From Dehalococcoidia bacterium (lineage in GTDB: Bacteria; Chloroflexota; Dehalococcoidia; Lucifugimonadales; UBA3495), in NCBI GenBank assembly GCA_963664725.1, contig OY761558.1, forward strand, positions 1,498,224-1,562,223: a DNA stretch of 64,000 nt, given 5' to 3'. Under the pieces are notes generated by a model. That model saw only the letters and a list, made by a program, of their open reading frames with translations. It was not told the DNA's origin and did not search any database. Numbering within the stretch: the stretch's first letter is position 1; every line of letters starts with the position of its first letter. Of the stretch, positions 1 through 4,543 are shown piece after piece. The translations under genes were made by a program, and so were the position numbers.

Positions 1-3
1 TGT

Positions 4-230
4 GCGCTGGGCAGTTAGCCCCCTTCAGTAGCGGCCCCAAATTGGGCCACCCACGTTTAACGTGTTTCGGTATTCCAGGTTTAACCCCTGGTCTCTTTGT
101 GCCGGTGTGCAGCCACGTCTGCGCGTGATTTTGTCTCACGCCGCAGCGTCGGCTGGACCGTCGGCTGTGCCCCAAATCGGCCAGCAAGGACGGCAGCGTC
201 CCGGAACACCTTAGACCGGGGAAACTGGTC
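4..230 (+). ncRNA. putative structured leader RNA, copy 1 (5' part probably outside the window)
   Basis: 4-114 matches 719-829 at 104/111 nt; serial short hairpins; stem 91-106/176-191 encloses a long hairpin; ends before RBS AAGGAG of ORF 261. Confidence 0.55.
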
Positions 231-260
231 CAACAACATTATTTTAAAGGAGAAAACTTT

Positions 261-548
261 ATGCTAAAGACGAGACCGAAGTATCGTTCACAAGGTCCCG
301 GTCAACCCCCGCAGCGGGTGGTCTGGGCCCGACGAGCGCCAGCCTACTGCATTCTCTGCGGACATGGGGTTACCCGGTATGCCCCGCAGCGCCCCATGTG
401 CATAGACTGCTGGAGCGGTGAGTATGAACACCAACCCATCCGAGACTTCAGGGACATCCCGATGCAGTTCTGCCACCGGTGCGGTGAGAGGGCGCAGGTT
501 TCTTACGGCGCCCCGGTGTGCTTGGCCTGTGATGACCGGTTTGCCTAA
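261..548 (+). CDS. small double zinc-ribbon protein (4x CxxC)
   Basis: AAGGAG RBS; CILC..CIDC and CHRC..CLAC form an internal duplication. Confidence 0.75.
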   Translation: MLKTRPKYRSQGPGQPPQRVVWARRAPAYCILCGHGVTRYAPQRPMCIDCWSGEYEHQPIRDFRDIPMQFCHRCGERAQVSYGAPVCLACDDRFA

Positions 549-662
549 CTCGCCGCATAGGCCTGCCGAGGTCGGGAATTCCCTGATTTTCCTGAGGCAA
601 TATGACAGTTGACTAACCGTTTTTTCTTGACCTGAAGAGTCCACCGTAAAGGTGTGTCATGA

Positions 663-964
663 ATTCAGCGACTCTAGCGAGGACGTGAAGTCGCCTCTTT
701 CGATTTAGCGCCAACAGAGCGCTGGGCATTTAGCCCCCTTCAGTAGCGGCCCCAAAGTGGGCCACCCACGTTTAACGTGTTTCGGTATCCATGGTTTAAC
801 CCCTGGTCCCCTTGTGCCGGTGTGCAGCCGCACTCGCCTGCCCGCGTCCGTGCCACCGCGTGGCGCGACGCGGTAAGTGGCCCCCTGGTTTCGCAGGTCG
901 CCGGTACAAAGGGACCCTTACGGACCCGCCCTGATGACTGTGAACACCCCAGGCGACGCTGAAT
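663..964 (+). ncRNA. putative structured leader RNA, copy 2
   Basis: Shared 111-bp core 719-829; 17-bp stem 806-822/899-915 with two G-U pairs; closing stems 663-670/957-964 and 691-696/951-956 next to RBS 968-973. Confidence 0.6.
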
Positions 965-979
965 CTGAAGGAGCAATAA

Positions 980-2320
980 TTGGAAAATCTGCAATCTCAA
1001 CAGGAGTTCGAGTCCCGCCAGAAGGAGGTGCTCGGGAATGACCTGAAGTTGTTCCTGCTGTACAACACCGCGCGGCAATACCGCATACTCCGCCAACTGG
1101 TCATTGAGGAAAATCCGAGCGGGACCGAAGGTGGCTGGATTACCGCGACAGTGGTCAGGGGCTTGCTGCGAAGAATTGCTGTGAACGAGCCCGTGGTACG
1201 GGAGGTCCAGAATTTCCTGGGCCAGCCCGAAGACCCCACCCTGTCCGAAATCACTGGAGCCTCCCTTTTGTCCAGCTCACTGGCCGGCCCCATAAACCGT
1301 CTGCTGGTCGCCAGGGTTTCCGACGTGCTGGACAAGGAAGAGGACTTTGCTTGCCAGTTGCTGGCCTTCCTCCAGCTGGACCTTGCCATTCTCCCCTCCC
1401 AGCTTGTTGAAGACTTCGGCCACCTCCGCTTGGCGGACCTTCGGGAACAGCTGGACTCAATCCCGATGGACCTGAGGCTGCTGGAGCGGGCGCCGGTTTA
1501 CGAGAAGAACCTGAATAACCTGGAAGAGTTGGAGCGTTCCTGCCGGGATCAATTAATTTCCAACTACGAGCCTCTGGTTGACTCCATTGCCCGCCAGCGC
1601 TGGGCTGGCCTGAATTCCATCCCGGTACCCGAGCGGGAGAGTCCGATCACCCTTGACGACCTGGTACAGCAGGGCCAGATTGCCCTCATAAATTCCATAG
1701 AGGGATTCAAAATCAGGCGCGTTATTCTTGACAGCAGCCGTGCAGTAAAGAACGGCGGGAGTGTCGTCAGTTTTGCATCCTACGCCCGGCCCGCTATCGA
1801 GCACGAAATCTCTGACTTCATCCGGCGCAACCTGCACGCCGTAGCAATCCCTAAGGAAATTGCCAGGGAACGCCGCCGGATGGCGCAGGTCGAAGCCCAA
1901 CTGCGCAGTGAGTTGCGGAAATACGACGTAGAATGGGAGCTTTACGATGCCCTTGGACTTCCCCGGGAGAAATACGACAGCCTCAGGAATCCCTTCTTGC
2001 CGGCCAAAGGCCTGCGCGACCCTGTCGGCAGCCCCGACAGCGATCTCACCCTGGCCGACACCATTTCCGACCCGTCCGTCGGCCCTGAAGAGTTAGTTTG
2101 CTCCAAACTAATGGTCGAAAAGATGCTCCAGGCCCTGCAAACCCTCCCCGAACGGGATCGCCGCGTTCTGGAACTCCGCTTCGGCCTGGGCCGCGACCGC
2201 GAACTGACCTTTGATGAACTGGGCCGTGAACTCGGCATCTCCCGCCAGGCCGTCCACAAGACCGTGGGCCGGGCCCTGAAAAAGCTGCGCGACCCCGCCC
2301 TGGGCCTGGTCGAAGGCTGA
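980..2320 (+). CDS. divergent sigma-70 family RNA polymerase sigma factor with long N-terminal extension
   Basis: Region 2 (DDLVQQGQIALINSIEGF..SFASYA), region 3.2 (TLADTISD), region 4 HTH (LPERDRRVLELRFGL..LTFDELGRELGISR..ALKKLR); TTG start after AAGGAG. Confidence 0.85.
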   Translation: MENLQSQQEFESRQKEVLGNDLKLFLLYNTARQYRILRQLVIEENPSGTEGGWITATVVRGLLRRIAVNEPVVREVQNFLGQPEDPTLSEITGASLLSSSLAGPINRLLVARVSDVLDKEEDFACQLLAFLQLDLAILPSQLVEDFGHLRLADLREQLDSIPMDLRLLERAPVYEKNLNNLEELERSCRDQLISNYEPLVDSIARQRWAGLNSIPVPERESPITLDDLVQQGQIALINSIEGFKIRRVILDSSRAVKNGGSVVSFASYARPAIEHEISDFIRRNLHAVAIPKEIARERRRMAQVEAQLRSELRKYDVEWELYDALGLPREKYDSLRNPFLPAKGLRDPVGSPDSDLTLADTISDPSVGPEELVCSKLMVEKMLQALQTLPERDRRVLELRFGLGRDRELTFDELGRELGISRQAVHKTVGRALKKLRDPALGLVEG

Positions 2321-2817
2321 TCACGCGCCCCGGCCCGATTCACGAAGCCCCCACCCTGCTGCAAGCGTAATACGCCACAGGGTAGGGGTGCGGGGCCGTG
2401 CGGAGTCAGGTGGCGCGTCGGACCGGCCTGCCGCGGCCACCCTCTGAAATTCCACTGCCCTGTGACGCCTTCCCCTTGCCACGATGCATAACCCCTGCCC
2501 ATCATGACAATACCGGTTGCCAAGAAACGGATCGACTGTTCCAGGCCCCTTGCCCCCTTGACTGCTGAATGTCACAGCCTGTCCTTGGCTGGCCGAAGCA
2601 ACTGGCGAGCGATGCAGTGCAGAGCTACCGTCGCCCTCAGCATGGAAACCGATTGGAACTTTTGAAACAGCTTCAGATTGACGGCCCAAAACGGGCTATT
2701 TGGGGACATTTGGTGGGACATTTTGGGCCACTCCATCCCACTCCCGTATCTGGCGAACGGGCCCTTCCTGGCCCACTTAGGCTCAACTACTCCCATTCTC
2801 CAGATACAAAAACCGGG

Positions 2818-2865
2818 AAAATGGCACAAAATGGCACAAAATGGGACAGAAAAGAAAAAAATCCC
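2818..2865 (+). repeat. AAAATGGCAC 10-bp tandem repeat x3 plus A-tract
   Basis: aaaatggcac aaaatggcac aaaatgggac..aaaaaaatccc; related copies on the minus strand near 16010-16045 and 16788-16837. Confidence 0.8.
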
Positions 2866-2906
2866 TGCCAGGCTTGTGGGTCAGGGCAATCGCATTATGA
2901 TTAGAT

Positions 2907-3018
2907 TGTCATTCTGAACGGAGTGAAGAATCTAGAATCCATCCCACAGGCCGACTTGGGGACCCGTAACCGCGCAGACGTGCAGGATATTAGGCCCTTC
3001 GGCAAGCTCAGGGCGACA
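2907..3018. repeat. TGTCA-type paired palindromic repeat
   Basis: tgtcattctgaacggagtgaagaatcta..cttcggcaagctcagggcgaca; a related pair lies at 32917-33012. Confidence 0.6.
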
Positions 3019-3210
3019 TGATTTATGCTTGGCGGATGTCTGCCACCTGTAGTCTGAATCTAGAACGCGATTGCCCTGGCTTGTGGGTGGGAAGGGGCAA
3101 TCCTGGGCTCCGGCAGTTGACAGATGTGCTCCTTACCCGCCACGTTGTAATATGTCGGTGCCCTGTTACTGGCAGAACATCCTGAATGCAAGCCTGGAGG
3201 ACTCTGAAAT

Positions 3211-4326
3211 ATGGGCGCCTGCCGCTACTGTGGACAGAACGCCGGATTCCTGCGCAAGCAGCACGGAGAGTGCCGCGACCGGCATCGGGCCGGCATCGAG
3301 GAGATGGTGGACCTGGTGGCCCAGTCCGCCGGTGCCGCCACCTTCAACGAAGCGGCCCTCCGCCAGACCCTTAACGCCATCGCCGCCCGGGCCCATGCCG
3401 GCGGCGACGACGTCAACGCCGCCTTGGCCACCGGCTGGACTCGGGGCATCAGCCACGCCATGGCCGACGGCATTATGACCCGCGACGAGGAGACCCGCCT
3501 GCGCGAATTTCGCGACCGTATGGCTCTGGAGGGCAACTCTGAAACCGCCCAGGGCGAGGCCACCCTGGACCGGGCCGCCACCGACCGGCTCACCCTGGAC
3601 GCCCGCCTGGCTGCCCTGGCCACCGACCAGGGAGACGCTCACCTGCAGGACCTTTCCCACAGCCTCCAGGATGCCGGCATTTCCGGGGCAGCGAGTCGCC
3701 AGCTTCTCATCCGCGCCTGGGAGGCGGCCGTGGAAGGCTCCCTGGAGGACGGTGTCTTTACCCTGGACGAGGAGAATGCCCTGGCCCGGTATCTCAACCA
3801 CTTCAACCTGACCAGCGGGGACGTCAACGACAACGGCGCCCACACCAGCCTGGTCCAGGCCGCCGTCATCCGCGACGTGGCCAACGGCATCATCCCCCAG
3901 CGCCAGAACGTCCAGGGCAACCTGCCCTTCAACCTGATGAAGTCCGAGCAGCTTGTCTGGGTGATCGATGGCGTGGACTACCTCGAAACCGTAACCCGTC
4001 GGGAACGGCGGGGCAGTTCCCAAGGCGTCAGCATTCGTGTGGCCCGGGGGCTCTACTACCGGCCCAGCACCTTCCGCAGCCGCGCCGTGGAATGGGAGGA
4101 AACCCAACGGCTGGACAACGGTCTGCTGGGTCTGACTACCAAGCACATCTACTTTGCCGGTTCCAGCAAGCGGTTCCGCGTCCGCTACGACCGCATCGTT
4201 ACCTTCGAGCCCTACAGCGATGGCCTGGGCATAATGCGCGACGCCCAGACCGCCAAGCCCCAGAGCTTTATCACCGGCGACGGTTGGTTCGTCTACAACC
4301 TCGCCACCAATCTGGCCCAGACGTAA
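3211..4326 (+). CDS. hypothetical protein: N-terminal Cys/His zinc motif, two TerB-like repeats, C-terminal beta-rich domain
   Basis: CRYC..H..C..H; ADGIMTRDEE and EDGVFTLDEE repeats; genome-typical codon usage. Confidence 0.75.
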   Translation: MGACRYCGQNAGFLRKQHGECRDRHRAGIEEMVDLVAQSAGAATFNEAALRQTLNAIAARAHAGGDDVNAALATGWTRGISHAMADGIMTRDEETRLREFRDRMALEGNSETAQGEATLDRAATDRLTLDARLAALATDQGDAHLQDLSHSLQDAGISGAASRQLLIRAWEAAVEGSLEDGVFTLDEENALARYLNHFNLTSGDVNDNGAHTSLVQAAVIRDVANGIIPQRQNVQGNLPFNLMKSEQLVWVIDGVDYLETVTRRERRGSSQGVSIRVARGLYYRPSTFRSRAVEWEETQRLDNGLLGLTTKHIYFAGSSKRFRVRYDRIVTFEPYSDGLGIMRDAQTAKPQSFITGDGWFVYNLATNLAQT

Positions 4327-4543
4327 GTGCAAGGAGCCTGTTCGTTGAACCGGCTCCCCAGGCGTCCTATAATCCCCCGCACTGTTGGCGGGGCAAAGTA
4401 ACCAACCAGGTGGCCCGCCCAACCGTCATACCGGCTCTTGCCGGTATCCAGAAGTTGTCAAAACCGGGGCGACCTCTTTCAGAACACTGTCTGAGTCGGT
4501 TCATCACCGGTCCGTGATCATCGCTATCAATCAAGGAGACATC

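Follow-up and report, generated by a model that had tools for sequence, protein, structure and literature searches.

A modular candidate leader RNA upstream of a sigma-70-family gene in one genus of Dehalococcoidia

Organization of the locus and of its repeat units

The 64-kb stretch of contig OY761558.1 analyzed here (the window, whose coordinates are used unless another locus is named) is part of the genome of a Dehalococcoidia bacterium (G000; 3.75 Mb, single contig) and opens with two plus-strand genes. These encode a double zinc-ribbon protein of 95 amino acids (aa) (positions 261 to 548; CxxC...CxxC twice, basic N-terminus) and a sigma-70-family protein of 446 aa (positions 980 to 2320; conserved TTG start). 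Upstream of each gene lies a copy of a 111-nt repeat (positions 4 to 114 and 719 to 829). The copies had been reported as identical at 104 of 111 positions without gaps, which realignment confirmed, and all hairpins and pairings named in the original prediction are present in G000. The seven differences fall in the loops of hairpins H2 (positions 14/729) and H3' (42/757), so that the first two lie in loops as had been claimed, and then in a junction (74/789), the 5' arm of H5 (76-77/791-792), and the 5' strand of helix P6 (94, 96/809, 811). The repeat is the last unit of a longer element, and we consider it about an even call that this element is a clade-specific, plus-strand leader RNA that acts in cis to control translation of the accessory sigma-70-family gene.

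The repeat is confined to this locus. A BLAST search of the G000 genome returned only the two core copies, and the pattern GCGCYGGGC-N5-GCCCC occurs exactly four times in the 3.75 Mb, always on the plus strand and at window positions -156, -75, 4, and 719. All four G000 matches of a covariance model of the upstream units (R2) are likewise at this locus. The scattered copies expected of an ordinary dispersed repeat or the end of an insertion sequence (IS) were not found, and an element of this kind (i.e., a repetitive extragenic palindrome, a miniature inverted-repeat transposable element, or an IS end) was rejected because the copies occupy a single locus and share one strand.

The element had been described as a duplicated RNA of ~300 nt. 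Instead, it is a modular leader of ~390 to 590 nt from the predicted start site, and the 111-nt core forms just its final unit. The start of the window cuts the element: ~235 nt of leader, including two further repeat units, precede position 1, as does the promoter, and the start of the leader was read from loci L002 and L003 (L003 being the G000 locus extended upstream of the window). The order of parts is promoter, zero to three tandem upstream units (A units; 78 to 81 nt, four hairpins each), a terminal unit (T unit; i.e., the 111-nt core), helix P6 with the variable GC-rich domain that it encloses, a tail of ~63 nt, and the start codon. The first half of an A unit consists of H1 (GCGC-loop-GCGC), H2 (GGGC-N5-GCCC), and a pyrimidine linker, L1 (CCCCUUUUAGAU-like); the second half consists of H3 (CGUCC/GGACG), H4 (GGGA/UCCC), and another pyrimidine linker, L2 (CCCUCUUyGUUUAG-like). 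The T unit comprises H1, H2, L1 (CCCCUUCAGUAG), H3' (GGCCC/GGGCC), H4' (CACG-UUUAA-CGUG), and H5 (CCAGG/CCUGG), and H4' is extended across a UUUC bulge by a 3-bp helix, P-ext (ACC/GGU). The T unit is followed by the 5' strand of P6 (GGUCCCUUUGUGCCGG), the enclosed GC-rich domain (~60 to 75 nt), and the tail.

In the copy upstream of the zinc-ribbon gene, all parts of which are on the plus strand, the 3' arm of H1 occupies positions 4 to 7 (its 5' arm is just upstream of the window), followed by H2 (GGGC at 9 to 12, loop at 13 to 17, GCCC at 18 to 21), the single-stranded and conserved L1 linker (CCTTCAGTAGC; 22 to 32), H3' (33 to 48), P-ext/H4' (49 to 71; ACC-CACG-TTTAA-CGTG-TTTC-GGT), and H5 (75 to 91). 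The strands of P6, at about 92 to 107 and 176 to 191, enclose a variable GC-rich hairpin domain; the pairing of 91 to 106 with 176 to 191 contains a bulge and has a predicted energy of -14.9 kcal/mol.

The copy upstream of the sigma gene, also on the plus strand, is preceded by a degenerate half unit (668 to 707) with a GCGACT/AGTCGC hairpin (668 to 694) and an L2-type pyrimidine linker (CTCTTTCGATTTA; 695 to 707). It continues with H1 (708 to 722), H2 (724 to 736), L1 (737 to 747), H3' (748 to 763), P-ext/H4' (764 to 786), H5 (790 to 806), the P6 strands (807 to 822 and 899 to 915), and the enclosed GC-rich domain (823 to 898). Here, 806 to 822 and 899 to 915 form 16 of 17 pairs (-27.5 kcal/mol). 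Positions 737 to 744 of L1 (CCTTCAGT) are the proposed anti-Shine-Dalgarno strand, that is, the 5' side of a putative helix, P7. The tail (916 to 979) holds the conserved GAACACCCCAGGCGA, the 3' strand of P7 (TCTGAAGG; 964 to 971), and the Shine-Dalgarno (SD) sequence GAAGGAG (967 to 973).

Four close relatives (G001, G005, G011, and G015) carry the leader, and G014 is an outgroup from the same genus. We refer to the leaders of the sigma genes of G000 and the four relatives as the five sigma leaders and to these plus the zinc-ribbon leaders of G000 and G001 as the seven leaders, each with one T core. The T cores are 92% identical within G000 and 88% identical within G001, and the cores of the two zinc-ribbon leaders are 75% identical to each other; the greater likeness within genomes suggests that the cores evolved in concert or were duplicated independently.

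The number of A units before the T unit varies: two in the zinc-ribbon leader of G000, none in its sigma leader (which has only the degenerate hairpin and L2 at 668 to 707), one in each of the two leaders of G001, three in G005, and one each in G011 and G015. The G014 leader has one A-like unit and a partial second but no T unit; its unit is 80 nt long and forms four hairpins with altered stems (e.g., GUGC/GCAC for GCGC/GCGC). It also contains a second short direct repeat, GGTAyTGGCTTGTCCCG, present twice after the hairpin units and ~150 to 100 nt upstream of the sigma-like ATG. Tandem Repeats Finder reported a 79-nt period in G005 (3.3 copies, 96% matches) and a subperiod of 39 to 40 nt, which indicates that each A unit consists of two similar half-modules (two hairpins plus a CCCCUUU tail); the half-module motif of hairpin and pyrimidine tail recurs up to about eight times in that genome. 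The program did not detect the diverged G000 units. With head-to-tail units of a 78- to 81-nt period and zero to three copies, the array has the form of a minisatellite or variable-number tandem repeat (VNTR). Since none of the unit spacings (78, 79, 80, and 81 nt) is divisible by three, the array is noncoding, and small open reading frames (ORFs) in the leader were not conserved by eye among the close-relative sequences, leaving no sign of a leader peptide.

Promoters, neighboring genes, and distribution

A predicted promoter, GGGTTGACA-N17-TAnnnT, lies upstream of the array in all five close genomes and in G000 matches 11 of the 12 sigma-70 consensus positions. A second TTGACA box occurs ~115 to 120 nt further upstream (TTGACA-N17-TATATA versus TTGACA-N17-TATATT), and its position is kept in all five close genomes; the two tandem housekeeping-type promoters are at about 1310 to 1345 and 1435 to 1463 of L003, upstream of the window. 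The predicted start site is ~7 nt past the TATATT box, at about 1470 of L003 (window position about -228). G000, G001, G005, G011, and G015 thus share one order, consisting of a short-chain dehydrogenase gene on the far side of the leader, two TTGACA-N17 promoters, a half unit, A units, the T unit, the P6 domain, the tail, and a TTG start. The sigma orthologs are 434 to 446 aa long and keep both the TTG start and the GAAGGAG SD sequence.

The zinc-ribbon gene is less constant in place. Its orthologs (L015:1067-1363, L016:1066-1362, and L017:3280-3576, all on the minus strand) encode proteins with eight invariant Cys/His residues, and the gene is downstream of the sigma gene in G005 and G015. 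In G000 and G001 it instead precedes the sigma gene and has a leader copy to itself. The query used did not recover it from G011 or G014, both of which keep the leader. The position downstream of the sigma gene in two relatives and the failure to find the gene in two others indicate that the leader is primarily associated with the sigma gene. Of the original proposal of a structured leader before two adjacent genes, the presence of a noncoding structured element before both genes stood, but the primary tie is to the sigma gene only. Judged by gene order, the duplication in the window appears to accompany relocation of the zinc-ribbon partner gene. Domain searches gave the zinc-ribbon protein no family assignment and detected no RNA-binding domain in it; the protein may be a sigma partner, an anti-sigma factor, or an RNA-binding factor.

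Among 151 genomes of the family, sigma orthologs (58 to 66% identity) were found only in G001, G005, G011, and G015; the G014 relative is 35% identical, and all other matches reach at most 31%. The leader occurs only in the genomes with a sigma ortholog and in G014, that is, in six genomes of one genus including G000, and always 5' of the sigma gene. An exact-pattern scan of 185,579 GTDB species representatives yielded 52 stretches, of which 4 were real (G001, G005, G011, and G015) and 48 were chance matches. Among JGI metagenome contigs, a protein-based scan found no relative and a DNA pattern scan gave one match, which was unrelated; viral contigs gave no pattern matches. The covariance models were no more productive outside the genus: R2 gave seven weak matches (E values of 0.002 to 0.08) in the 151 family genomes, all unrelated on inspection, and nothing at 24 other sigma loci (L020 to L043), and a T-core model (R1) gave four weak matches in coding-like DNA among 151 genomes of the order, with nothing credible beyond the genus. 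One weak match of the A-unit model, in another genus of the family (L105; G120:C7, about 410950 to 411100), is an unrelated tandem repeat of ~37 nt (CTCCCGCAAGGGGGAAAGGACTTTGTTCCTCCT, ~3 copies).

The original prediction could not match the element to any riboswitch, T-box, intron, or ribozyme, and the Rfam comparison bore this out. Rfam 15 gave no matches at the gathering score over the whole window and none at E values of ≤1 in L003, L004, L005, and L019. At E values of ≤10, positions 1 to 3000 gave four weak matches, none of them over 4 to 114, 719 to 829, 4 to 260, or 668 to 979; two fall within 4 to 964, one in the zinc-ribbon gene and one across its end. ARAGORN predicted no tRNA-like genes in L003. 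Among the papers listed by a literature search, none describes the element in its title or the opening of its abstract, which does not prove that no description is in print.

Elsewhere in the window, ~1.2 kb at positions 3071 to 4422 is conserved in G001, G005, G011, and G015 and carries long ORFs that overlap on opposite strands (minus strand, 418 aa; plus strand, 371 aa), neither of which has a Pfam match.

Conserved pairing potential, favored strand, and possible transcription

Pairing potential is conserved throughout the leader. Among the seven T cores, 91.5% of 165 alignment cells form standard pairs, compared with 18 to 45% when the partners are slid by one to three columns; P-ext holds the two compensatory pairs (C-G replaced by U-A, once in G015 and once in G001). 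In the five sigma leaders (48 pairs, including P6 and P7), 92.4% of 236 cells are paired versus 29 to 48% in slid alignments, and three pairs changed on both sides. Across units, H1 forms 100% and H2 96 to 97% standard pairs, and the stems of both are conserved in sequence as well as in pairing, while most loops vary. The claim that a long-range helix follows the core in spite of sequence divergence held up: P6 forms in all seven leaders (-19.7 to -38.7 kcal/mol), and 90.7% of its alignment cells are paired, many by U-G. An alignment of 18 units gave 95.0% of 259 cells paired versus 31 to 66% in slid alignments, with double-sided changes in 5 pairs (14 cells) and a covariation score that none of 500 shuffles reached, a result tempered by the fact that this alignment was fitted to the structure model and that its rows include same-genome paralogs and are not independent. 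Most of its compensatory changes distinguish A-type from T-type H3 stems or occur in the G014 unit. The conservation of pairing potential, together with a few compensatory changes, thus supports the fold well, but statistically robust covariation does not, given that only six closely related species are available.

The plus strand is favored by several features. The original argument from G-U pairs was upheld, with 16 G-U but only 1 A-C combination in 236 paired cells. The array is also skewed in base composition (T, 27 to 31%, versus A, 15 to 20%; both are 20% in the genome), and the orientation of the promoter agrees. Folding itself exceeds chance: compared with dinucleotide shuffles, the plus strand of 708 to 995 folds with a z score of -3.52 (0 of 200 shuffles as good) and the whole first leader with one of -4.64 (0 of 100).

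These observations also bear on the idea that the A units have no role as RNA and are either a neutral minisatellite, generated from part of a functional T leader by slippage or unequal crossover, or operator-like inverted repeats that act in the DNA. The variation in A-unit number between species (zero to three) fits either form, and the 96% likeness of the G005 copies suggests a recent expansion; the H1 and H2 sequences are perfect palindromes that a dimeric DNA-binding protein could read, and both strands fold well. However, at least one A-type unit is present in every leader-bearing genome, though none precedes the G000 sigma gene, and the G014 unit retains the same geometry with changed stem sequences. 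The G-U bias and the T/A skew are strand specific, and the A units are downstream of a conserved promoter and would be transcribed if it is used. We therefore find an explanation at the DNA level very hard to credit.

Sequences assembled from RNA runs include parts of the leader. A metatranscriptomic run gave a 315-nt contig that matches positions 2191 to 2501 of L003 with 17 differences and reaches from the 3' end of the zinc-ribbon gene into the second core, and a 151-nt contig from another RNA run covers 1653 to 1769 and then jumps to 2486 to 2519; such contigs are few and derive from relatives, and libraries of this kind can hold DNA. The 151-nt contig skips 716 nt, which matches the spacing of the cores to within a base, and its joint (1769 to 2486) reflects either a collapse of the two cores during assembly or a natural variant without the zinc-ribbon gene. 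Four sequencing runs were aligned with the leader, and gaps in their coverage of it carry no weight.

No convincing intrinsic terminator was found in the leader, in which five weak terminator-like sites compare with 2.2 expected. This would suit a Rho-dependent attenuator, in which the C- and U-rich linkers form a split Rho utilization (rut) site and Rho loads on the untranslated leader and terminates transcription before or within the sigma gene; in lambda tR1, a hairpin lies between rutA and rutB. The array is pyrimidine rich and A poor, with YC-rich linkers every ~40 nt, and the genome has a rho gene (592.6 bits, above the cutoff). Against this, C is barely more frequent than G (0.27 to 0.30 versus 0.24 to 0.27), and the idea is purely conjectural; we regard such an attenuator as very doubtful. 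A boxA/nut reading of L2 (CCCUCUUyGUUUAG) was rejected, as the G000 16S leader (~75 nt after the promoter) has, by eye, no CUCUUyGUUUAG-like element.

Predicted pairing across the Shine-Dalgarno sequence and possible modes of control

L1 of the T unit (CCUUCAGU, positions 737 to 744) is the most conserved single-stranded piece of the leader and is complementary to ACUGAAGG; its partner in G000 (UCUGAAGG, positions 964 to 971) overlaps the SD sequence. When the region from the T unit to the start codon was folded, P7 was part of the minimum-energy structure of all five sigma leaders, with the probability that the SD sequence is unpaired being near 0. Only 0, 4, 5, 22, and 44 of 1,000 shuffled L1 sequences in the respective sigma leaders paired as well with the SD sequence, and the SD region is the best partner of L1 anywhere in the leader in all five; viewed from the SD sequence, L1 ranks 0 to 7 among ~470 windows of sequence. 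In the zinc-ribbon leader of G001, CUCC in L1 faces GGAG in the SD region in the same register, with a U-A pair replaced by C-G. The sigma leaders thus run from a predicted promoter to the start codon on the coding strand and, in five of five cases, contain a conserved SD-complementary strand, as expected of leaders that sequester the SD sequence.

A different switch had been predicted for the sigma leader, in which 663 to 670 and 691 to 696 pair with 951 to 964 in competition with a local stem. All of its pairs can form in G000 (663-670/957-964, 8 of 8; 691-696/951-956, 6 of 6; 668-673/689-694, 6 of 6), but the switch is not kept in the relatives: by eye, its outer helix is not conserved in G001, G005, G011, or G015, with only a 6-bp remnant in G005. 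Another candidate helix, P8, in which GUGUUUCGGU of the core would pair with the conserved GAACAC of the tail at the expense of H4'/P-ext, was not supported; it beat shuffles in one leader only (G000_z; 5 of 500 as good), and in the other six leaders 152 to 369 of 500 shuffles did as well.

In the mechanism that we propose for translational control, transcription would start at the predicted housekeeping-type promoter and proceed through zero to three A units, each formed by two ~40-nt half-modules with a CCCCUUU-type pyrimidine tail, into the T unit. L1 of that unit would pair with positions 964 to 971 across the sigma SD sequence, and the resulting P7 would complete a five-way junction in which it meets H3', P-ext/H4', H5, and P6. 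Because the ribosome-binding site (RBS) is occluded in the P7 fold, the default state would be translational repression, and some putative trigger would open or stabilize the fold. A duplicated copy of the leader is now also present before the small zinc-ribbon neighbor of the sigma gene. The A units may add binding sites or compete for pairing; since their L1 and L2 tails are similar to both the anti-SD strand and the 5' strand of P6, they could serve either as competing partners or as repeated protein sites.

Several observations weigh against this reading, in addition to the dependence of the 18-unit alignment on the structure model and the nature of the RNA-run contigs. The covariation score was reached by 70 of 500 shuffles for the seven T cores and by 69 of 500 for the five sigma leaders, for which 107 of 500 also reached the number of compensatory pairs. 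The minus strand of 708 to 995 beats shuffles as well (z = -2.99; 1 of 200 as good), so that folding energy alone cannot settle the strand. P7 itself is nearly invariant, with six of its eight pairs never varying, and its support consequently comes from complementarity rather than from real covariation. In G011 and in G000, other leader segments pair with the SD sequence at least as well as L1 does; the best-scoring alternative partner in G000 is the L2-type linker of the half unit (695 to 707, scored as segment 693 to 708; -15.1 kcal/mol). The L1/SD pairing is not significant in the zinc-ribbon leaders (179 and, for the G000 copy at the window start, 424 of 1,000 shuffles as good) or in G014 (648 and 758 of 1,000). 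In G014, CCCCCUUCA is conserved without complementarity to the SD sequence, suggesting that L1 may be conserved for another reason.

Conservation of L1 in G014 would be expected if the tandem modules were a platform of multivalent sites for a protein (candidates include the zinc-ribbon protein, sigma itself, and some RNA-binding protein of general function) whose occupancy sets the translation or stability of the sigma mRNA by autoregulation or feedback. Such a platform could coexist with SD sequestration. It would account for the retention of the H1 and H2 stem sequences and the CCCCUUU tails while loops vary, for the range in module number from zero to three, and for the recurrence of the 39- to 40-nt half-module motif up to about eight times in G005. 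The zinc-ribbon gene adjoins the sigma gene in four of the five close genomes, and its product, with a basic N-terminus and eight invariant Cys/His residues, is one candidate. Yet this gene was not found in the leader-keeping G011 and G014, and no RNA-binding domain was detected in its product. We regard a protein platform as possible but rather unlikely.

A more ambitious version combines the two ideas. The copy-number-variable array of two-hairpin modules with anti-SD-like CCCCUUU tails would represent a new class of modular riboregulator for an alternative sigma factor and act as a multivalent sensor, tuning the frequency with which the five-way junction closes over the RBS. It could act through a trans-factor (e.g., the coencoded basic zinc-ribbon protein) or by offering competing partners for the SD sequence and the 3' strand of P6. 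If true, this would imply graded, feedback-controlled sigma synthesis, although we consider the proposal speculative and unlikely to hold as a whole.

A junction closed by an SD-containing helix is also what a small-molecule riboswitch would present, with the five-way junction of the T unit as the aptamer and P7 as the expression platform. The invariant UUUAA loop and UUUC bulge and the lack of an Rfam match would agree with an undescribed riboswitch class. However, the downstream genes encode a sigma factor and a zinc-ribbon protein rather than metabolic or transport functions, and restriction to one genus-level clade is unusual for riboswitches; the diversity is too low to define a pocket, and covariation is thin. 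A ligand-sensing role thus seems quite improbable.

Returning to translational control by P7, the locus would offer a concrete, testable case, with a conserved promoter, a species-variable number of modules, and a precise 8-bp anti-SD/SD pair. Chloroflexota and Dehalococcoidia are largely uncultured, and to our knowledge, posttranscriptional control of alternative sigma factors is almost unknown in them, although a few model bacteria have been studied in depth in this respect. The pairing of the sigma and zinc-ribbon genes, the latter relocated together with a second leader copy, suggests that the two products have to be controlled alike and provides a lead to a sigma/partner module. The wider significance is limited by the distribution over six genomes of one genus and by the lack of experimental access to the organism.

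Comparison with known systems shows partial likenesses. RNA thermometers are known in heat-shock sigma control, and P7 with its surrounding fold could in principle melt with temperature and free the SD sequence. Like ROSE and fourU elements, the leader has several hairpins and an SD sequence that is predicted to be base-paired, here in an 8-bp helix with U-A and U-G pairs. However, it is much longer, its SD partner is distal rather than in a local hairpin, and P7 is embedded in a fold of -105 to -130 kcal/mol with a 15-bp GC-rich P6, which is far more stable than those elements. With no Rfam match to ROSE or any other thermometer, we think temperature sensing highly improbable.

The repetition of a short structured module within one RNA, in numbers that vary between species, recalls CsrB and RsmZ. 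These are free-standing small RNAs (sRNAs) in which GGA motifs in loops titrate CsrA/RsmA, whereas the leader RNA would continue into an mRNA and conserves instead a pyrimidine tail on the 3' side of a hairpin; a sponge of the CsrB/RsmZ type was rejected because the leader loops are variable (AGUGA, UUUAG, GAAU, ACAU, UUUGU, and others) and share no GGA. At the DNA level, mycobacterial interspersed repetitive units (MIRUs) and other VNTRs are likewise head-to-tail intergenic repeats of tens of bases that differ in copy number between relatives. In contrast to those minisatellites, which occupy many loci per genome, the leader is found at a single locus and is linked to one gene family, and its units retain their four hairpins through compensatory changes.

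The 5' leader of Escherichia coli rpoS extends over hundreds of nucleotides, and an upstream pyrimidine-rich strand occludes its RBS, so that translation of this alternative sigma factor is repressed by default. The leader described here is predicted to be a similarly long fold-back structure before a sigma gene with an upstream pyrimidine-rich strand over the RBS. Unlike the rpoS leader, to which it has no sequence or Rfam relation, it is built from tandem hairpin modules, its proposed occluding strand is part of a conserved five-way junction ~220 nt upstream, and no activating sRNA or Hfq site is known for it. With translational OFF riboswitches it shares a conserved junction that is predicted to be closed by an SD-containing helix and conserved stems with mostly variable loops, and it differs from them in having no known ligand, nonmetabolic genes downstream, a range of one genus, and an upstream array of repeated modules. 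The leader, which matches no Rfam family, would work most like that of rpoS or a translational OFF riboswitch, from both of which its tandem modular build sets it apart.

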